DNA of 64,000 nucleotides from Parcubacteria bacterium C7867-006. GTDB taxonomy: Bacteria > Patescibacteriota > Minisyncoccia > Phycocordibacterales > DATDWN01. This document shows, piece after piece, positions 42,797 through 52,558 of the stretch. Location: assembly GCA_001189155.1 (NCBI GenBank), contig LFCP01000001.1, positions 23,160 through 87,159 on the forward strand, read 5' to 3'. Each line of letters opens with the position of its first letter. Positions within the stretch are counted from its first letter, which is position 1. Made by a program: the position numbers and the translations under genes. The notes beneath the pieces were generated by a model. The model worked only from the letters and a program-made list of their open reading frames with translations, had not been told where the DNA came from and ran no database searches.

Positions 42797-43210
42797 ATGT
42801 CAACAATAAATCAACTAATCAGACGAAAGCGATCAAAGCCTAAGGTAAAGCCAAAGGCTGTTGCTCTTACTCGTGGTTTTAACACTCTTACAAACAGACC
42901 TGTATTTTATGGTTCTCCATTTAAGAGAGGTGTATGTACAAAGGTAACAACAAAGACTCCAAAGAAGCCTAACTCAGCTATCCGAAAATACGCGAGAGTT
43001 CGACTTACAAACGGAATGGAAGTTTCTGCTTACATCCCAGGTATGGGTCACAACCTACAGGAGCACTCAGTGGTTCTACTTCGAGGAGGAAAGGTAAAGG
43101 ATGTCGGTCTTCGATACACTATTGTTCGAGGTGTTTTGGATGCTACTGGAGTTGATTCAAGACGACAAGGACGATCACGATACGGTAACAAGAAGCCAAA
43201 AGCTAAGTAA
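42797..43210 (+). CDS. rpsL: 30S ribosomal protein S12
   Basis: [11 protein letters not shown]...[19 protein letters not shown]. Confidence 0.95.
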
Positions 43211-43221
43211 TTTAAATATAT

Positions 43222-43692
43222 ATGCGACGAAAAGTAACTAACAGAAATATAGTAGGACCAGATCACGTATACAACTCTGAAAAGATTGGTAAATTTATCA
43301 ACTATGTAATGCTACGAGGTCAAAAAGAAACAGCTAGAGGTATAGTTTACGAGGCTCTTGAGTTGGTTAAAGAAAGAGCAAAAGTAGAAGATCCTATGGA
43401 GGTTTTGGATGCAGCTTTGAAAAATGCAGGTCCTCTAACAGAAGTACGATCAAGACGAGTTGGTGGTGCTAACTACCAGATTCCTCGAGAGGTTAGACCT
43501 GAGAGACGATCTTTTCTATCTATGAAATGGATCATCGAAGCAGCACGAGAAGGAAAGGGTGCTCCTATGGCATCACGACTAGCAGATGAGATCATTCTAG
43601 CTTCAAAGAACGAAGGAAAGGCGGCAAAGAAGAGAGAGGATACTCATAAGATGGCGGAAGCCAATAAAGCCTTTGCTCATTTTGCTTGGTAA
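43222..43692 (+). CDS. rpsG: 30S ribosomal protein S7
   Basis: Canonical S7 sequence with str-operon synteny. Terminator at 43692-43722. Confidence 0.95.
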   Translation: MRRKVTNRNIVGPDHVYNSEKIGKFINYVMLRGQKETARGIVYEALELVKERAKVEDPMEVLDAALKNAGPLTEVRSRRVGGANYQIPREVRPERRSFLSMKWIIEAAREGKGAPMASRLADEIILASKNEGKAAKKREDTHKMAEANKAFAHFAW

Positions 43693-43924
43693 GAAAAAGC
43701 CCTTCGGGGCCTTTTTCTTACCAAGCAAAATCAATTAAATAGTGCATGGTCGGTAGATAAAATTGCTTTAGAAATTTTATCTCCGGGTGTATTTTTTAAA
43801 AACTCTTAACGTCGTATCTCATCCAAATTGTGAAAACTTAAATTAAACAGTGCTTGATCGGTAAGAAAAAGTTTTTTAATTTTTGTCTTCTGGGTTGGAT
43901 TTTACTTATGATAAAATATTTCAT

Positions 43925-44122
43925 ATGGAAACCTTTTTTGATCTAGTTAAAGATCCGGCACATTGGGAGTTTGAGATATTACTCATCATTATTTTTGATG
44001 TAATTATTGGTTTGGTTATCTGGCCTTTTGTACAGAAGGCTCTTGTTCACCACAAGTCAGATCACGAGAGGTTGGAGGATTTAGAGAGGGAAGTTGAAAG
44101 GCTGAAGAACCCTCAGGGTTAG
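43925..44122 (+). CDS. Small hypothetical membrane protein between rpsG and fusA
   Basis: One TM segment (ILLIIIFDVIIGLVIWPFV); 65 aa counted from the internal Met. Confidence 0.35.
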   Translation: METFFDLVKDPAHWEFEILLIIIFDVIIGLVIWPFVQKALVHHKSDHERLEDLEREVERLKNPQG

Positions 44123-44207
44123 GATTGCTCAAAATGGTCTTTTGGTATATAGTTTGCACATTCCACTCAGGAATTTTTTTTACTCTTTATTATTCATTAA
44201 TTAATTT

Positions 44208-46349
44208 ATGAACCGCGATTATTCATTAGATAAAGTTCGAAACTTCGGTATTATTGCTCACATTGACGCAGGAAAGACAACAACTTCAGAGCGTGTGCTT
44301 TTCTATACAGGAATGACTCACAAAATCGGTGAGGTGCACGAGGGAGAAACTGTTACAGACTGGATGGAGCAGGAGAGAGAGCGAGGTATCACTATTACAG
44401 CTGCTGCTATTACTTGTTTCTGGAACCCAACATACAAACCAAAGGGACAGAAGCCAGAGTATCGATTTAACGTTATTGATACACCGGGTCACATTGACTT
44501 TACAGCTGAAGTAAAAAGATCTCTTAGAGTTTTGGACGGCGCGGTTGTTGTGTTCGATGGAGTTGCTGGAGTAGAACCTCAGTCAGAAACTAACTGGAGA
44601 TACGCTGATGATGGAAACGTTCCACGAATCTGTTTCATCAACAAACTGGACCGAACGGGTGCATCTTTTGAGCGTTCATATGCTTCTATTCTAGATAGAC
44701 TAACTAAAAATGCTGTTAGAGTTCAGATTCCTATCGGACTTGAAGATAAGTTTGAGGGGGTTATCGATCTTTTGAAAATGAAGGCGTTTTACTTTGAGGG
44801 AAACATGGGAATGACTATTAGAGAGGAAGAAATTCCTGCTGAGTATTTAGATGAAGCAAATAAATACAGAGCTGAGCTTGTTGAAAAAGTTGTCGAGCAA
44901 GATGATACTTTGATGGCCGCATATTTAGAAGGAAAGGAGCCTTCATTTGATGACTTAAAGGCTACACTTAGAAAAGCTACTTTGGCGGTTAAGCTAGTGC
45001 CGGTATTTGCTGGTTCAGCTCTGAAAAACAAAGGAGTTCAGTTGGTGCTAGACGGTGTGGTTGATTATCTACCATCTCCACTAGATATTCCTCCTGTTCA
45101 CGGAATTGATCCAAAGACAGGTGGTGAGATATATAGAAATGCATCTGACACAGAACCTTTTGCAGCGCTTGCATTCAAACTTCAGAACGACCCATTCGTA
45201 GGACAGCTAACATTCTTTCGAGTATATTCTGGAACAGTAGAAGCTGGTACATATCTATATAACTCAACTACAGGTGAGAAAGAAAGACTGGGACGTATTG
45301 TGCGACTACAGGCAGATAAACGAGAAGAAGTGAAAAAAGTTTTTGCCGGAGAAATCGCAGCCGCTGTGGGACTAAAGTCAGCAAAGACTTCTCACACGCT
45401 TTGTGATGAAACAAATCCGATCATCCTAGATCCTATTAAATTCGTTGCACCTGTGGTGTCTCTACGAATTGAACCAAAAACAAAAGCAGACCAGGAGAAA
45501 ATGGGTATGGCTTTGAAGAAACTTTCTGACGAAGATCCAACTTTTGTTATTTCATCAAACACAGAAACAGGAGAGTCTATTGTTTCAGGAATGGGTGAGC
45601 TACACCTTGAAATTATGGTTGATCGTATGAAAAGAGAGTTCGGTGTTGAAGTAAATGTCGGTAAACCTCAAGTAGCATACAGAGAGACTATTTTGGGAAC
45701 TGCAGAAGCAGAGCACAAATACATCAAGCAGACTGGAGGTAAGGGTCAGTATGGTCACGTTAAACTGACAATCAAACCAATGGAGAAGATTGAGGAGGGA
45801 GATAAAATTCCAAAGAATGTTAAAAGATACGAAGACTTTGAATTTATTGACTCAATCAAAGGAGGAGTTATTCCACAGGAGTTTATTCCTGCAGTTGAAA
45901 AGGGAGTTCACGAGGCTATGGATAGAGGAATCGTTGCTGGTTTCAAAATGGTAAATATTTCTTGTGAACTAACATTCGGTTCATACCACGATGTGGACTC
46001 ATCTGAAATTGCATACAAGATTGCAGCATCACAAGCCTTCCAAGAAGCAGCTAAAAAAGCAAAACCAGTTATTCTAGAACCTATTATGAAAGTTGAAGCT
46101 ATAATGCCAGAACAATTCATGGGAGATGTGACTGGTTCACTTTCAGGTAAACGAGGACAGATAGAAGGAATGGATGAAAGAGGAATGCTTCGAGTTATTC
46201 ATGCAAAAGTACCTCTATCAGAGATGTTCGGTTATACAACAGATATCCGATCTATGACACAGGGAAGGGGTTCAGTGATGATGGAGTTTGATCATTATGA
46301 AGTTGTTCCTCCTAATGTTGAGAAACAAATAGTAGAAAGCAGAAAATAA
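44208..46349 (+). CDS. fusA: Elongation factor G
   Basis: AHIDAGKTT and DTPGHIDF motifs; 713 aa. Terminator at 46355-46388. Confidence 0.95.
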
Positions 46350-46441
46350 TTAAACAAAAAACTCACCGTACGGTGAGTTTTTTGTTTTAATACACAGAAT
46401 TTTTTGCTAGTACATTTTAAAAAAGTTACAATGTATGCATA

Positions 46442-49400
46442 ATGGTTACTGTTTCAGAAAAAATACAATCTCCAGATGAATTAAAAAGTGAGCTTGATCG
46501 TGAACTTCATGGTGCTCATTTTTCTGAGTCTAGTGAAAAAGATCTTGGAAAACTAGTTTCTCACCAACCGACAGAACTTCCTCCAGTTGAGTACATTCCT
46601 ACATCAGTTAGAGGAAAAAGGCACGGTCCTTTAACCAAAAAAGAAGATCAAAAAAGAGTATTTAGAGAGAGTTCTGAGGGTATAGCTTTATCAAAAGAGT
46701 TGGAAGCTTTAAATACGGGGAAACCATCTGATATTGATAAATCTCAATTTAATTTTAATCCAGACGAGGTTAAAGAGTTTGTCCCGTCAGGAAGACCTTT
46801 TAAGCCATATGAAGATGTCGCAAAACCATCATATATTCTTAAGAGAAAAATTAAAAAACTCATAAGTTTTGTAAGATCAAATATAAAAAATTCAGCCAGT
46901 ATTGTTTTTGATTTATACCAGTTCGAAAAAGATTCGGATACTCCTTTGGTTATAAAAGAAATAGATAAATTAGAGGAGAATGGAGTTCTAAATACTGAAC
47001 AAGCAGATGAAGCTAGAAGCTTGATTTCTGATGATTCACAAAATATTATTGAAGAAAAATCAGAAGTTGATAATGTTTTAAAAACAGAAACGGAAACGGA
47101 AACAAAGCCAGAACCTGAAGTTAATACTGATAAAGTTGAGCCGGTTAAAAATATAGATAAAAAAAGAGAGTTAAGTGTAGATGAACTCAAGGCTAGTGCA
47201 ATGGATGCTTATGAAAAAGGAAATACAAGCATCTCTTTGTCTTATATTGATAAAATAAATGACGAAGAGGTTAGAGCTAATTTAATACGAGATATTGTTA
47301 TAGACTCCGTAAACAATAAGTCTTTCTCAAAAGCACGTAAATTTATAGACAAAATTAGGGATGATAGTTACAGGGTAGAATTGGGCGGTTGGTTAGATGG
47401 TCAGATTAAAATTCCTGTAGAAAAAATCAGGTCAGATAACGGAGAGGTATCTTTTGTGAAACCAGAGCCAAAATCTGTATATGCAGATATGCCAGTTATA
47501 GAGGATGACACACAAAAACCTGATTTAGATTTAAATACTGAATCTGAGACAGAAAATAATATTGGTGATTTGAAAATTAGAGAAGCTGAGGCGGAAGAAG
47601 AAACTCCAAAGATTGAGGATGTTAAGCCAAAAGATATTCCAGTAGTTGAAAATTCTGAAGTATTCGGTCCAGAAAACACTCCTCAGTTAGGGCCTTTAAC
47701 ACAAAAAGCACAGGAAGAAGCAGATAAAAAATTGGAAGAAAATCTAGAAAAAACTCGTGATGAGTACGCGAGATTTTATATTGATCATAAAAATAAAATA
47801 AGAGATAGAAAAGGATGGTTTGGTAAACATTTGGCTGATTTAGGTTTCGATAAACAGTTACCAAAAACAGAAGAACCAGAAGAGCTTAGGGAGGCACATA
47901 GAGCTTATGTGGAGGCAAAGAAACATAAAAATGAAATACTTTTTTCTCAGACAGAAAAACGTAAAAAAGAAGTAACTGGCCAGATACTATCGTTGAGAGA
48001 AGTTAGTTATGATTTCAACCCAAAATTACTAGATGAGACAGAAAAGGAATTTGTACTACTTCAAGAGAGAATACAGAACGGTATGCCTCCGTTAGAAAAA
48101 GGTATTGCTGGAAAAGTTTTTGAAAAGTGGGCAAAAATGAGTCGAGTTCAGAGAATTGCATTTAGTAGTGCAATTATAACTGGTACAAATATTGTTTTTG
48201 GAGCATTAACTTTACCAGCAGCTGTTGCGTATGGGGGTTACAGGGCTGGGCGTTCTGCATTGATTGGAACAGGGGTTTCTCAGGGAGTAGGTAAGGGGGT
48301 GGATACTATATTTAAAAAGAAAAATGAAAAGATTCATAAAGAAATGGCCGAAGAGTATTCATTTGAAATAAATGAAGAAAATTTTGCTGAAAAGGAAAAA
48401 GAGATGATGGAAAAAATGCAGAATGAGCAAAATAAAATAAAACGTCAACGCCTCTACAAAGCCGGAGTAATGATTGGAGCAGGAGGTTTGGCCACAATGG
48501 GAGCAGCAAGTTTGGAGTCTTTGGTTAAATCAACTATCGATATTCCTACTACTGTACCAGAACTTCCAAATCATCCAAAAATTAGAATCATGGATTCTAT
48601 TCCAGAAAAAAATATTCCTGAGAGCGTACATTCAGTAGAGGTTCCTGTTTCAAGTAAAGGTTTTATTGATACTTTCCATAATATAAAAGATGAGATAGTA
48701 AAACAGTATGGGGGAGAGGGTAATGTTCCAGAAGAAATTCACCGAACTATTCTAGATAGGTCAGATGTTGATTTGGCAAAACAGTTTCATATGTATGATC
48801 CAGAGCATAATTTGAGCGCAGTTGGGTATAAAGGAGAAACTCTCGGTTTAGATAGCTCAGGAAATCTCGTGTATCATCATTTGGATGGAAACAGTGAAAT
48901 AATGCTTGATACAAAAACCGGATTAACTCACGAGTTTGGTGGTCAGATTGAACATCATCCCGTTAAATTGAAAGTGGTTAGTCATGATACTCCCGGTAAT
49001 CTTGAAGTGAACGAGACTCCAGTTCAATCAACTCATATCGAAGATCAGGATGTTATTCCTACTGGAGATTCTATTCAAGAGTCTATTCCAGTTAGTGAAG
49101 TTACAAACTCAAATATAGAGAGTCGTGTATTTTATAATAATTCGTCTGTTGATGTGCTCCCAATAAACAATGGTGCCGGAAAAGCTGTGACATATCTTGG
49201 TAGGGAAATTGCTCATGAGTATACCGTTGGTGATAAAAAAGTTTTTTATCTAGATGATCAGTATCAAGACAATCCAGCATTCAAGGAAATTAGAGGAGCC
49301 TTTAATGCTTTTTATGAAAAAAATATCCCTAGTAATACACAGGTAGTTGCACCAATAGATTTTGAAGGTGGTAAGATATATATAATAAAGGACGCGATTA

Positions 49401-49585
49401 ATCCTAAAGGTGTAAGTGTGTTGTTAAATGGAAGGGAGATTGCCAAAGGCTTAATAAATGGAACTAGTGCGAAGGTTCAAATAATCAGTAATTTAAAAGG
49501 AGGATGGTTTCTCGCTGACAATGCTTACGAAAGGGCTTTTAAGTTGGCACAGAATGTCATAAAGAACTCTAAATTAACACCATAA
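46442..49585 (+). CDS. Large (1047 aa) acidic membrane protein of unknown function inserted between fusA and tuf
   Basis: N-terminal 550 aa acidic and repetitive (ETETETKPEPEV). Two central TM helices (AIITGTNIVFGALTLPAAVAYGGY; AGVMIGAGGLATMGAASL). C-terminal 350-aa domain. No recognisable family. Confidence 0.55.
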   Translation: MVTVSEKIQSPDELKSELDRELHGAHFSESSEKDLGKLVSHQPTELPPVEYIPTSVRGKRHGPLTKKEDQKRVFRESSEGIALSKELEALNTGKPSDIDKSQFNFNPDEVKEFVPSGRPFKPYEDVAKPSYILKRKIKKLISFVRSNIKNSASIVFDLYQFEKDSDTPLVIKEIDKLEENGVLNTEQADEARSLISDDSQNIIEEKSEVDNVLKTETETETKPEPEVNTDKVEPVKNIDKKRELSVDELKASAMDAYEKGNTSISLSYIDKINDEEVRANLIRDIVIDSVNNKSFSKARKFIDKIRDDSYRVELGGWLDGQIKIPVEKIRSDNGEVSFVKPEPKSVYADMPVIEDDTQKPDLDLNTESETENNIGDLKIREAEAEEETPKIEDVKPKDIPVVENSEVFGPENTPQLGPLTQKAQEEADKKLEENLEKTRDEYARFYIDHKNKIRDRKGWFGKHLADLGFDKQLPKTEEPEELREAHRAYVEAKKHKNEILFSQTEKRKKEVTGQILSLREVSYDFNPKLLDETEKEFVLLQERIQNGMPPLEKGIAGKVFEKWAKMSRVQRIAFSSAIITGTNIVFGALTLPAAVAYGGYRAGRSALIGTGVSQGVGKGVDTIFKKKNEKIHKEMAEEYSFEINEENFAEKEKEMMEKMQNEQNKIKRQRLYKAGVMIGAGGLATMGAASLESLVKSTIDIPTTVPELPNHPKIRIMDSIPEKNIPESVHSVEVPVSSKGFIDTFHNIKDEIVKQYGGEGNVPEEIHRTILDRSDVDLAKQFHMYDPEHNLSAVGYKGETLGLDSSGNLVYHHLDGNSEIMLDTKTGLTHEFGGQIEHHPVKLKVVSHDTPGNLEVNETPVQSTHIEDQDVIPTGDSIQESIPVSEVTNSNIESRVFYNNSSVDVLPINNGAGKAVTYLGREIAHEYTVGDKKVFYLDDQYQDNPAFKEIRGAFNAFYEKNIPSNTQVVAPIDFEGGKIYIIKDAINPKGVSVLLNGREIAKGLINGTSAKVQIISNLKGGWFLADNAYERAFKLAQNVIKNSKLTP

Positions 49586-49587
49586 AT

Positions 49588-49887
49588 ATGAACACAGCTT
49601 TATCTATAGATGTAATAAAAGAATGGGGCTTACAAAAACTTTCTCCCGAGAAACAGGAGGAAATGGTTGAGCGCATAGGTCGTATAATGTACCAGGCTAT
49701 TTTAGTGAGGTCTTTGGATATTCTTTCAGAAAAAGAACAAGATGAGTTCGATGCTCTTTTAGACAAAGACGATACAACTCCACAGACCGTTCTATCTTTT
49801 CTAGAATCAAAAATCCCAACTTTTCAAGAGTTACTAAAAGAAGAAAAAAACAATCTAAAGAGAGATTTATTGATACCGTTGGAGTAG
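49588..49887 (+). CDS. Hypothetical 99-aa protein
   Basis: ORF tightly coupled to the preceding gene (3-nt gap); no motif recognised. Confidence 0.4.
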   Translation: MNTALSIDVIKEWGLQKLSPEKQEEMVERIGRIMYQAILVRSLDILSEKEQDEFDALLDKDDTTPQTVLSFLESKIPTFQELLKEEKNNLKRDLLIPLE

Positions 49888-50075
49888 GGCAACCATTGAC
49901 TATTTTTGGTGTTTTGACTACTATATTCTAATCGCCGTTTTTGCGTGTCAGGAAAGTATTTTTCTGCACTAAAGTTCCTAAAATTCAGCGATAATATTTA
50001 TTGCTCGAACGTTGAGTTTTTGGAATTTCCAAAATGGCAAAATTATAAGGGTTTAATAATTTTAATAATAAAAAT

Positions 50076-51272
50076 ATGACAGATTTTGATCGATCAAAGC
50101 CGCATATGAACGTTGGTACAATCGGCCACGTTGACCACGGTAAGACAACATTAACAGCAGCTATCCTTACAGTTCTAGGACGACAAGGAAATGGTTACGG
50201 TGCCAAAATCAAGGGAGTTGGAGAAATCGACTCAGCACCTGAGGAAAAAGCAAGAGGAATTACTATTGCTCTTTCACACAACGAGTACGAGACACCTACA
50301 AGACACTATGCTCACGTAGATGCCCCAGGACACGCTGACTACATCAAAAACATGATTACTGGTGCCGCTCAAATGGACGGTGCAGTACTAGTGGTAGCAG
50401 CTACAGATGGTGTGATGCCTCAAACACGAGAGCACGTACTTTTGGCAAAGCAGGTTGGAGTTCCAAAGATCATTGTTTTCCTAAACAAGTGTGACATGGT
50501 TCCAGATGCAGAGCTTATTGATCTAGTTGAGGAGGAAGTTCGAGAACTCCTTACAAAGCAAGGATTCGATGGAGCAGGAGCTCCAGTTATCCGAGGTTCA
50601 GGACTAAAAGCTCTTGAATCAGCATCTAACGACGACGAGTGGGCAAAGAAAGTGTTGGATCTAGCAAATGCACTAGACACATACTTCCCAGTTCCACAAC
50701 GAGATCTTGATAAGCCATTCCTAATGCCAGTTGAGGACATATTCTCAATCGAAGGACGAGGAACAGTGGTTACAGGAAGAATCGAGAGAGGTGTTATCAA
50801 AGTAGGTGAGGAAATCGAGTGTGTTGGTCTACACGATACACAGAAGTATACAGTTACTGGTATTGAAATGTTCAACAAATCTCTATCAGAAGGACAAGCT
50901 GGAGACAACGCAGGTATCCTACTCCGAGGTGCAAAGAAAGAAGAAATTCACCGAGGTCAGGTTCTTGCAAAGCCAAAGTCAGTGACTCCACACACAGAGT
51001 TTACAGCTGAGGTTTATATCCTAAAGAAAGAGGAAGGAGGACGACACACACCATTCTTCTCTGGTTACAAGCCACAGTTCTACATCCGAACTACAGACGT
51101 TACAGGAGATGTGACTCTAAACGAGGGAGTAGAGATGGTTATGCCAGGAGATACAGTTACATTCAAAGTTAAACTAGTAGCACCAGTTGCTCTAGAAGAT
51201 AACACAAGATTTGCTATTCGAGAGGGAGGTAAAACAGTTGGAGCCGGCGTGGTTACAAAAATCATCGCTTAA
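50076..51272 (+). CDS. tuf: Elongation factor Tu
   Basis: [10 protein letters not shown] and DAPGHADY motifs; 398 aa. Confidence 0.95.
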
Positions 51273-51293
51273 TTTTAAACTTTAATAAGTTTT

Positions 51294-51322
51294 CAAAAAA
51301 CCACCTTTGGGTGGTTTTTTGA
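51294..51322 (+). terminator. Intrinsic terminator after tuf (module copy 1)
   Basis: aaaaaaccaccttt-gggtggtttttt. Confidence 0.75.
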
Positions 51323-51388
51323 TTGTATGAAAAAACACTTGAACAAAAAATGATTATCTGGTAGTATCTTGAAATCAATTAAATTGAC

Positions 51389-51769
51389 ATGGCAACAAAA
51401 GAAACAACAAAGAAATCAGCTCCAAAGAAGGCTTCTGCAAAGTCTGCTGTAAAATCAGATGTTATTTCAAAGCTACGAATACGAGTTCGAGCTTATGAAT
51501 ACAAGATTCTAGACCTTTCAGTAAAGCAGATTATAGATACAGCTCTAAGATATGATGCAAAGGTAGAAGGACCCATCCCTCTTCCTACTGAGATAAAGAA
51601 ATATACTGTAAACCGATCATCTTTCGTTTACAAAAACGCCAGGGAGCAGTTCGAAATGAGAATTCACAAGAGGGTAATAGACATTCTAAACCCTACACCA
51701 AAGATAATGGAGGCTTTAACAAACCTTTCATTACCATCAGGAGTGAACATCGACGTAAAGATAATTTAA
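51389..51769 (+). CDS. rpsJ: 30S ribosomal protein S10 with an N-terminal Lys-rich extension
   Basis: IRVRAYEYKILD... Confidence 0.9.
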   Translation: MATKETTKKSAPKKASAKSAVKSDVISKLRIRVRAYEYKILDLSVKQIIDTALRYDAKVEGPIPLPTEIKKYTVNRSSFVYKNAREQFEMRIHKRVIDILNPTPKIMEALTNLSLPSGVNIDVKII

Positions 51770-51771
51770 TC

Positions 51772-51800
51772 AAAAAACCACCTTCCAGGTGGTTTTTTGA
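51772..51800 (+). terminator. Intrinsic terminator after rpsJ (module copy 2, near-identical to 51294..51322)
   Basis: aaaaaaccaccttcc-aggtggtttttt, followed by the same acttgaa(t/c)aaaaaa...tagtat promoter-like segment. Confidence 0.7.
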
Positions 51801-51946
51801 TATCTACTAAAAAAGACTTGAATAAAAAAACATTATCTGCTAGTATGACCCAATCGCCGAATAGGCTTTTTTAAATGGTAACTAGTGAAGGGCAATGTTG
51901 AGAAATTCTTTCTCATTACTGTCCGCAAATCGTTACCGCAAATAAC

Positions 51947-52558
51947 ATGAAATTTATATTAGGAACAAAAGTAAATATGACTCAGATCTTTGACGAAAAA
52001 GGTCTAGTTCATCCTGTAACAGTTGTAAAAGCTGGTCCAGTTGTTGTTACACAGGTTAAAACAGTTGCAACAGATGGTTACAATGCTGTTCAAGTAGGTT
52101 TTGGCTCAAAGAGTGCAAAGAACACAAACAAAGCCATGACAGGTCACACAAAAGGTGGTAACTATGCACACCTAGTTGAGTTTAGAACAGAAGGAGAGCC
52201 TTCTTTTAAAGTTGGAGACTCTATCGATCTTTCTACATTTTCAGCGGGTGATATGGTTGTTGTTTCTTCAGTTTCTAAAGGAAAAGGATTCCAAGGGGGT
52301 GTTAAGAGACATGGTTTCAAAGGAGGTTCACGAACACATGGTCAGAAACACTCTGAACGAGAACCAGGTTCTATTGGAGGAGGGGGACGAGATGGAGGCC
52401 GTGTTGCAAAAGGAAAGAGAATGGCCGGAAGAATGGGTGGTGATAGAATCACATCAAAAGGTCTAACAGTTGTTAGTGTAAAGCCAGAGACTAACGAGAT
52501 TTTTATACAAGGAGCTATTGCTGGACGAAGAGGGACTCTTGTTGAGGTTGTAGGCTAA
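51947..52558 (+). CDS. rplC: 50S ribosomal protein L3
   Basis: Canonical L3 sequence. Confidence 0.9.
   Translation: MKFILGTKVNMTQIFDEKGLVHPVTVVKAGPVVVTQVKTVATDGYNAVQVGFGSKSAKNTNKAMTGHTKGGNYAHLVEFRTEGEPSFKVGDSIDLSTFSAGDMVVVSSVSKGKGFQGGVKRHGFKGGSRTHGQKHSEREPGSIGGGGRDGGRVAKGKRMAGRMGGDRITSKGLTVVSVKPETNEIFIQGAIAGRRGTLVEVVG

Follow-up and report, generated by a model that had tools for sequence, protein, structure and literature searches.

The canonical str operon consists of the genes rpsL-rpsG-fusA-tuf. In the stretch of 64,000 nucleotides (nt) of Parcubacteria bacterium C7867-006 that was analysed here (GenBank assembly GCA_001189155.1, contig LFCP01000001.1, positions 23,160 to 87,159 of the forward strand; hereafter the window), the order of these four universal genes is retained, but fusA and tuf lie 3.7 kb apart and two extra genes are located between them. 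The upstream open reading frame (ORF) encodes a protein of 1047 amino acids (aa), hereafter the large protein, and the downstream ORF a protein of 99 aa. This raises the question of what the two genes encode, and what their position between the genes for EF-G and EF-Tu signifies. As set out below, they form a conserved gene pair, and we consider the chances about even that this pair represents a conserved two-gene module in which a membrane-anchored, cytoplasm-facing scaffold would be combined with an adaptor of the DUF5663 family. The source genome is a 652-kb groundwater genome bin with 36% G+C (Nelson and Stegen 2015, PMC4508563).

A conserved gene pair between fusA and tuf

Both ORFs are real, because an ORF of 3.1 kb cannot arise by chance in DNA of 36% G+C and because many homologues exist for each of the two. 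The initial annotation of the window, which was made from its sequence, had placed the insert at 46442–49887, and these coordinates proved to be exact. The 99-aa product matched the Pfam family PF18908 (DUF5663): it scored 26.9 bits, where the cut-off is 23.7, at E = 7.6e-6, and was aligned to model positions 2–81 of 84. It thus covers 80 of the 84 positions above the gathering cut-off and also has the format of this family, which comprises stand-alone proteins of about 85–115 aa from candidate-phyla bacteria. Accordingly, the view that the insert consists of novel coding sequence holds for the large protein, which is conserved but uncatalogued, whereas the 99-aa ORF encodes a member of a known conserved family and is referred to below as the DUF5663 gene. 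DUF5663 was known already as a Pfam entry, although this entry includes neither a function nor the pairing with a large protein or the position between fusA and tuf, both of which are described here. In the literature searched, DUF5663 and PF18908 were not mentioned.

An alignment of DUF5663 proteins was scanned against one genome per GTDB species, and the gene order around the matches was mapped by tblastn. This resulted in 44 loci with DUF5663, one in each of 44 species-level genomes from Zambryskibacteria, Paceibacterota and Minisyncoccia records. Wherever the contig was long enough, the genes were found in the order fusA, large-protein gene, DUF5663 gene, tuf, rpsJ and rplC. The insertion between fusA and tuf is therefore real and clade-wide, and the reservation that a synteny comparison might reveal an assembly artefact can be dropped, since the arrangement recurs in 44 independently assembled genomes. 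Compared with the proteins of the window, identities in the related loci ranged from 49 to 87% for DUF5663 and from 23 to 60% for the large protein (for fusA and tuf see Table 1). The closest homologue of the large protein, P0002, is 51% identical over 600 residues and is encoded on an independent contig with the matching order L28 (minus strand), M50, rpsL, rpsG, fusA, large-protein gene and DUF5663 gene.

Within the pair, the DUF5663 gene was located downstream of the large-protein gene in all four of the first homologue loci, in the 44 species-level genomes, and in five further loci (L050–L054) that represent four more distant family members. The distance between the stop codon of the large-protein gene and the start of the DUF5663 gene is 2 nt in the window, with a median of 5 nt over 46 loci and at most 30 nt in 35 of these, which bears out the tight coupling of the two ORFs noted at the outset. 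In distant relatives, the pair was encountered away from the str cluster, flanked by a divergent gene for a LysM-M23 peptidase on one side and by uvrD plus an RrnaAD (16S rRNA methyltransferase) gene on the other, the latter being positioned two genes downstream of the pair. What is invariant is the gene pair, not its chromosomal position. At L009:2147–2246, fusA seemed to be fused in frame to the large-protein gene, but this turned out to be the effect of a run of N, either a scaffold gap or masking. At L052:2170–6152, just upstream of the family pair, another gene for DUF5663 (108 aa) lies ahead of one for a different protein, which has 1210 aa and hydrophobic segments, and in view of this arrangement the large membrane proteins that DUF5663 partners may be of more than one kind.

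The search with the DUF5663 protein of the window returned 183 homologues of 97–104 aa from records of Parcubacteria, Paceibacterota and Zambryskibacteria. Among the 120 matches listed, identities were 61–100%, and most of the homologues listed carried a precomputed PF18908 match. The conservation of DUF5663 is comparable to that of rplC and of the M50 protease gene. AlphaFold2 modelled the protein as five helices, with a predicted local distance difference test (pLDDT) score of 85 and a predicted template modelling (pTM) score of 0.72. Neither a hydrophobic segment nor a signal peptide was detected in it, and no relative in the PDB was identified by sequence profile or by Foldseek (best E = 3.4). 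Three homologues bear the JGI name TraB/PrgY 'pheromone shutdown', which we rejected, as hmmscan of the 99-aa ORF at E ≤ 1 showed no TraB family and as these proteins comprise only ~98 aa where several hundred would be expected.

Architecture and predicted topology of the large protein

As judged from profile searches, the large protein is a member of a big, widespread and uncatalogued family. It had no match in Pfam, NCBIfam, PHROG or PADLOC, its best hit among the PDB sequence profiles was not below E = 0.06, and a Foldseek search of the PDB with residues 430–1047 gave at best E = 0.14, with a TM-score of at most 0.14 on the query. MHC-like and phage-fibre rows among these fold results were regarded as noise. 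An exhaustive profile search was performed with the conserved core (residues 430–837), the window protein being among the sequences from which the profile was built. At a threshold of E ≤ 1e-3, this search retrieved 705 cluster representatives, of which 451 also passed E ≤ 1e-10 and 161 passed E ≤ 1e-30, and the start of the core in the matched proteins varied from about residue 1 to residue 1077. Word-indexed searches with the large protein returned 4 and 10 proteins only, for which low-complexity words were to blame. The NCBI name of P0004, FecR, could not be substantiated, as no FecR family was found by hmmscan at E ≤ 1 in P0002–P0004 or in the window protein.

Conservation is unevenly distributed along the large protein. 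In phmmer comparisons with the family, residues 1–240 and 336–429 were essentially unique, residues 241–335 were shared with a subset of the family, and residues 430–1047 were family-wide. The window protein fits the family core, which is composed of domain A, a hydrophobic segment, a charged helical hairpin, a further hydrophobic segment and domain B, and which is followed by the DUF5663 gene. The commonest architecture, with domain A, the membrane loop, domain B and domain C, was present in 100 of 193 family sequences, and variants exist. AlphaFold2, applied to residues 430–1047 with 51 sequences, reached a pLDDT of 78 overall; domains A, B and C were modelled confidently, and the hydrophobic stretches and the Pro-rich linkers received low confidence. 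Domain A adjoins the membrane segments. Domain B is marked by the motif VELSSKGF...KGE.L.LD..GNL, and domain C by the motifs LLNGKEIA and GGWF..DNVYERAFK. Domain C is an internal duplication in which a module with five beta-strands and a single helix occurs twice, and the relationship of its two halves was detected by hhalign (probability 72%, E = 3e-5). Consequently, what had been described as one C-terminal domain of 350 aa is really two globular domains, B and C, with a Pro-rich, disordered linker between them. The AlphaFold check that had been advised for this part yielded confident models, but none had a significant fold match in the PDB.

Two transmembrane helices had also been predicted, and two hydrophobic segments are indeed present, although their Kyte-Doolittle peaks, calculated over 19 residues, are merely moderate (Table 1). 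Gly, Ala and Thr abound in segment 1, which has Gly/Pro at its centre and carries positive charge on both flanks. The conserved motifs GYRxAR and KRQRLxKA delimit the charged stretch that connects the two segments, and the helices of this stretch were modelled with block-mean pLDDT values mostly of 86–94, lower at both ends.

The N-terminal part is of low complexity and acidic. With an isoelectric point (pI) of 5.25 for the whole protein and 5.0 for residues 1–560, its acidic character was confirmed, while its supposed repetitiveness was not: Tandem Repeats Finder detected just three trivial arrays in the DNA of the large ORF, with scores of at most 39. In the first 120 aa of family members, the motif [DG][IV]L..Q occurred in 43 of 166 proteins, against 1.25 expected from shuffles, and the motif PT[DE][LI] in 33 of 166, against 3.6 expected. 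The window protein retains QPTEL at residues 42–46 (46565–46579). More generally, the linear motifs FD[IV]LxxQ, SG[IV]HDF and [KR]PT[DE][LI], in this order, are strongly enriched in the N-termini of family members, which are otherwise unalignable. These short motifs are probably binding peptides for some partner. The sole Pfam match among 51 family members was DnaJ, in two of them, and altogether three members have an N-terminal J-domain, namely P0251 (with HPD) and P0260 and P0216 (with HSD); the window protein gave no DnaJ or J-domain match. In P0178 and in a 645-aa ORF at L050:3336–5273, an extra N-terminal DHH-like motif (FIDHHG or FFDHH) was recognised by eye.

The topology of the large protein can be approached from these features. 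Its N-terminus (MVTVSEKIQSPDELK) is hydrophilic, no signal peptide or export signal was found, and the first hydrophobic stretch, at residue 571, is preceded by ~570 residues. J-domains act with the cytoplasmic chaperone DnaK. Since three family members begin with this cytoplasmic module, the N-terminus of the family would be located in the cytoplasm. Averaged over the family, the Lys/Arg flank values were +3.1 before segment 1, +2.2 after it, at the nearly invariant GYRxAR, and +5.2 before segment 2, at KRQRLxKA. Under the positive-inside rule, these Lys/Arg clusters would place the charged helical hairpin in the cytoplasm, and segment 1, with about 30 residues and its central Gly/Pro, would therefore be a re-entrant hairpin instead of a full span. 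Whether segment 2 spans the membrane then decides the location of domains B and C. Short variants of 232–414 aa occupy the same locus beside DUF5663 in seven species (L033, L044–L049). They lack a signal peptide as well as any hydrophobic segment, they keep domain A and/or domain C, and several of them also retain the family N-terminal motifs, which are thereby joined to domain A and/or C in one soluble protein. Because of these soluble variants and the soluble partner DUF5663, we consider domain C roughly twice as likely to be cytoplasmic as to belong to an exposed C-terminus, and most of the mass of the large protein probably faces the cytoplasm.

Table 1. Positions of genes, protein regions and predicted signals in the window
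Feature	Position in window	Strand	Basis or remarks
rpsL	42797–43210	+	
rpsG	43222–43692	+	
79-aa ORF	43883–44122	+	
fusA (EF-G, 713 aa), upstream neighbour	44208–46349	+	ORF; 76–98% identical to fusA of related loci
Predicted intrinsic terminator directly after fusA stop codon	46352–46387	+	RNA fold, shuffles, conservation in relatives
Promoter-like site TTGCTA-17-TACAAT before large ORF	46404–46432	+	Consensus match only
Large protein ('BIG'), 1047 aa, pI 5.25	46442–49585	+	Identical to GenBank hypothetical protein AB201_00380
Residues 1–240, variable acidic N-terminal region, no signal peptide	46442–47161	+	phmmer matches itself and one other family member
Residues 241–335, N-terminal block of family subset	47162–47446	+	26 of 193 family sequences match; aligned with P0002
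Residues 430–565, domain A, helices and beta-hairpin	47729–48136	+	pLDDT mostly 80–97 (model residues 1–125); 114 of 193 sequences
Residues 571–598, hydrophobic segment 1	48152–48235	+	Kyte-Doolittle peak 1.66; family mean 1.63; low AlphaFold2 pLDDT
Residues 599–675, highly charged, two long predicted helices	48236–48466	+	Model residues 164–211 and 219–257; alignment, charge counts
Residues 676–696, hydrophobic segment 2, weak, Gly/Ala-rich, then Pro-rich linker	48467–48529	+	Kyte-Doolittle peak 1.25; family mean 1.26
Residues 729–839, alpha/beta domain B	48626–48958	+	pLDDT 88–96 by 10-residue blocks; 167 of 193 sequences
Residues 894–1044, domain C	49121–49573	+	pLDDT about 86–96; in 124 of 193 family sequences
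DUF5663 protein, 99 aa, pI 4.6, five helices, soluble	49588–49887	+	Identical to AB201_00385; PF18908 match
Promoter-like site TTGACT-17-TACTAT upstream of tuf	49896–49924	+	Consensus match only
tuf (EF-Tu, 398 aa), downstream neighbour	50076–51272	+	ORF; 86–99% identical to tuf of related loci
rpsJ	51389–51769	+	
rplC		+	

Transcription of the pair and organisation of the str cluster

The str cluster of the window differs from the canonical operon in that a strong predicted terminator follows fusA. It consists of a 16-bp perfect GC-rich stem that is preceded by an A-tract and followed by a T-tract (a U-tract in the RNA). Its predicted fold of −20.8 kcal/mol (z = −7.5) was not equalled in stability by any of 200 shuffles. 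Owing to the palindromic succession of A-tract, stem and T-tract, this terminator could be bidirectional. Within 260 nt after fusA, a terminator-like hairpin was present in 28 of 36 relatives, compared with 7.5% of random 260-nt windows, and the hairpin sequences differ between the relatives. Together, the predicted terminator of the window and those of the relatives argue against a single str transcription unit that includes the insert. Of 37 loci, 11 had a terminator-like site after DUF5663, and such a site followed tuf in 19 of 34; in the window, there is none between the 99-aa ORF and tuf. Since the terminator after fusA is followed by a promoter-like site, the pair is probably a unit separate from fusA, and transcription may continue from it into tuf.

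The ATG of the large ORF comes 9 nt after the end of the −10-like hexamer of the upstream promoter-like site, which suggests that the corresponding mRNA is leaderless or near-leaderless. No recognisable Shine-Dalgarno sequence precedes the starts of the large ORF, the DUF5663 ORF or tuf (46432–46442, 49570–49590 and 50060–50076, respectively). A promoter of its own had been assigned to tuf, and a promoter-like site is present in the expected place, but such matches are no more frequent in the region than in shuffled sequence (31 versus 27.2 ± 6.0). The leader before tuf is mildly structured (z = −2.1), and no Rfam element was found in the intergenic regions. The 3′ arm of the fusA terminator together with its T-run (CGTACGGTGAGTTTTT, 46367–46382) recurs with 14 of 16 matches as CGAACGTTGAGTTTTT at 50006–50021. 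This copy, 55 nt upstream of tuf, forms a weak 5-bp hairpin only, and as repeats of this kind are expected by chance in 4 kb, the recurrence is probably a coincidence.

From its position in the operon, the large protein had been expected to be abundantly made. Measured against ribosomal-protein and elongation-factor genes as the reference, the large ORF had a codon adaptation of 0.61 and the DUF5663 ORF one of 0.585. Both values are mid-range among 47 ORFs, whereas the ribosomal-protein and elongation-factor genes scored 0.70–0.82, and ribosomal-protein genes outside the reference set 0.70–0.80. Codon usage thus gives no sign of very high expression of the pair, which looks moderately expressed, and with a predicted terminator after fusA the expectation of abundance was not supported.

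The canonical operon also lacks the 79-aa ORF that is located between rpsG and fusA in the window. This ORF specifies one hydrophobic helix without a family match and represents a second clade-specific insert of the str cluster. It was found at the same position, with 68–89% identity, in nine related genomes (including L012, L013, L014, L020, L023, L040, L045 and L048). More generally, the str-S10 cluster of this clade is distinguished by expanded gaps that hold lineage-specific ORFs. In the related loci L006–L049, the median gaps were 708 bp for rpsG-fusA, 573 bp for tuf-rpsJ and 531 bp for rpsJ-rplC, individual gaps being as long as 3.2 kb and the contained ORFs measuring 70–1064 aa. The counterparts of these gaps in the window are 43692–44208, 51272–51389 and 51769–51947. 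Among the str-S10 inserts of the clade, only the one between fusA and tuf is universal.

Alternative explanations and the proposed membrane scaffold

Conceivably, the insertion could be an assembly artefact or a recent acquisition from a mobile or foreign element, as its G+C content of 0.31–0.37 is below the 0.40–0.45 of fusA and tuf. However, the insert has the G+C content of the ordinary genes of the window, in which fusA and tuf are the outliers. No integrase or transposase and no phage or defence-system match was found, the flanking repeats were 14–29-mers at chance level, and the arrangement was recovered from several metagenome contigs besides the independently assembled genomes. An artefact or a recent insertion is refuted by synteny, and the probability we would still assign to it is negligible. 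A role in translation, in which the module would act as a membrane tether or regulator of EF-Tu, EF-G or ribosomes and would be co-transcribed with tuf, is not so easily dismissed, yet we hold it to be improbable. It would explain why the position between fusA and tuf has been kept and is fixed in 44 species, and it would suit the scarcity of terminators between DUF5663 and tuf (in just 11 of the 37 loci), the conservation of DUF5663 at about the level of rplC and the M50 protease gene, and the RrnaAD gene two genes downstream of the pair in the other context. This gene is, however, the only translation gene near the pair in the distant lineages, and sequence and fold searches found no RNA-binding, GTPase or ribosome-associated domain in either protein. 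Furthermore, the position by itself is weak evidence, because the str-S10 cluster of the clade carries many other, unrelated inserts. The neighbours also disagree on the process that they would indicate, being translation factors in one clade and an M23 peptidase, UvrD and KsgA in another.

The initial annotation had favoured a surface protein, possibly one involved in host attachment. In such a protein, the N-terminus would be inside, the chain would effectively cross the membrane once, domains B and C would be exposed on Pro-rich stalks, and the fast evolution would result from contact with a host or the environment. Parcubacteria have been proposed to be ectosymbionts, and large surface or adhesion proteins have been proposed for them (PMC4508563). 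With these the large protein shares its size, its fast evolution, its restriction to certain lineages and its association with a membrane. It was 23–60% identical between loci where its neighbours were 76–99% identical, Pro-rich linkers are located after segment 2 and between domains B and C, no net positive charge follows segment 2, and in other lineages the pair adjoins the gene for a LysM-M23 cell-wall peptidase. Unlike those surface proteins, the large protein has no signal peptide and no adhesin domain or repeat, nor was any other known domain detected in it by sequence or fold, and it probably faces the cytoplasm. In addition, the variants with a J-domain speak against exposure, as do the seven species with short variants without a hydrophobic segment, several of which combine domain C with N-terminal motifs. 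DUF5663, the invariant partner, is soluble, acidic and devoid of an export signal, and the argument from abundance fails, as fusA is followed by a predicted terminator and codon adaptation is average. That the C-terminal domains are exposed at the surface is compatible with the data, but a surface or host-interaction protein is, all in all, an unlikely explanation.

We therefore return to the proposal of a membrane-anchored scaffold with its DUF5663 adaptor. The large protein would be anchored in the cytoplasmic membrane by the two short, weakly hydrophobic, Gly/Ala-rich segments that flank the charged helical hairpin, and its cytoplasmic mass would comprise the long, fast-evolving acidic N-terminal tail with its short peptide motifs as well as domains A, B and C. 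The variable tail would recruit cytosolic partners via these motifs or, in some relatives, via a J-domain. DUF5663 would be translationally coupled to the large gene and would serve as the conserved cytoplasmic partner or adaptor of the scaffold. The module would have become fixed between fusA and tuf in the Zambryskibacteria-like clade, where it would be transcribed apart from fusA. Several observations weigh against this proposal. The flank after segment 2 is without a positive cluster (+1.3) and runs into Pro-rich linkers, a charge pattern that would also fit an orientation with the N-terminus inside and the C-terminus outside, domains B and C being exposed. The hydrophobicity of segment 2 (mean 1.26) is too weak for a call from sequence, and AlphaFold2 was unsure of both segments. 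The distant relatives in the M23/uvrD context possess domain A, the membrane loop and domain B, but not domain C. A Rosetta-stone search for fusions of DUF5663 with the large protein found none among 193 family members, and the promoter-like matches, as indicated above, are not enriched over shuffled sequence.

Cytoplasmic adaptors of a comparable build are known. In ZipA, a membrane anchor is combined with a linker, charged or Pro-rich, and with a globular domain for binding, and DjlA is a membrane-anchored J-protein. The large protein resembles these adaptors in its putative membrane anchor, its long charged or disordered linkers and its small globular domains, and three family members share with DjlA a J-domain at the cytoplasmic N-terminus. 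This is an analogy only. Neither in sequence nor in fold is the large protein similar to ZipA or DjlA. Moreover, its anchor would be internal and made of two weak segments, unlike an N-terminal transmembrane helix, and the window protein, in contrast to DjlA, has no J-domain.

For the str genes of this clade, the findings mean that lying inside the gene cluster is not the same as being part of the str transcript, as the cluster is broken by a predicted terminator and by many inserts. A more far-reaching view is that the pair constitutes a hitherto unrecognised core cell-biological system of the Paceibacteria, with a hairpin-anchored scaffold and DUF5663 docking a central machine at the membrane. 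We regard this as speculative and quite unlikely. If it were true, what is docked might be the apparatus for division or the cell wall, the chaperone system of DnaK, or EF-Tu together with ribosomes; the pair would replace membrane tethers that are missing from the reduced genomes, and its place beside tuf would provide for growth-coupled expression. The genomes of candidate-phyla bacteria are tiny, and no function is known for a large share of their genes. Among these genes, DUF5663 and its large partner offer a defined target, for which confident models and domain boundaries are at hand. Since the pair stays together in hundreds of sequence clusters and holds a clade-wide fixed place in a gene cluster that ranks among the most conserved of bacteria, it is a good candidate for a lineage-specific core function.

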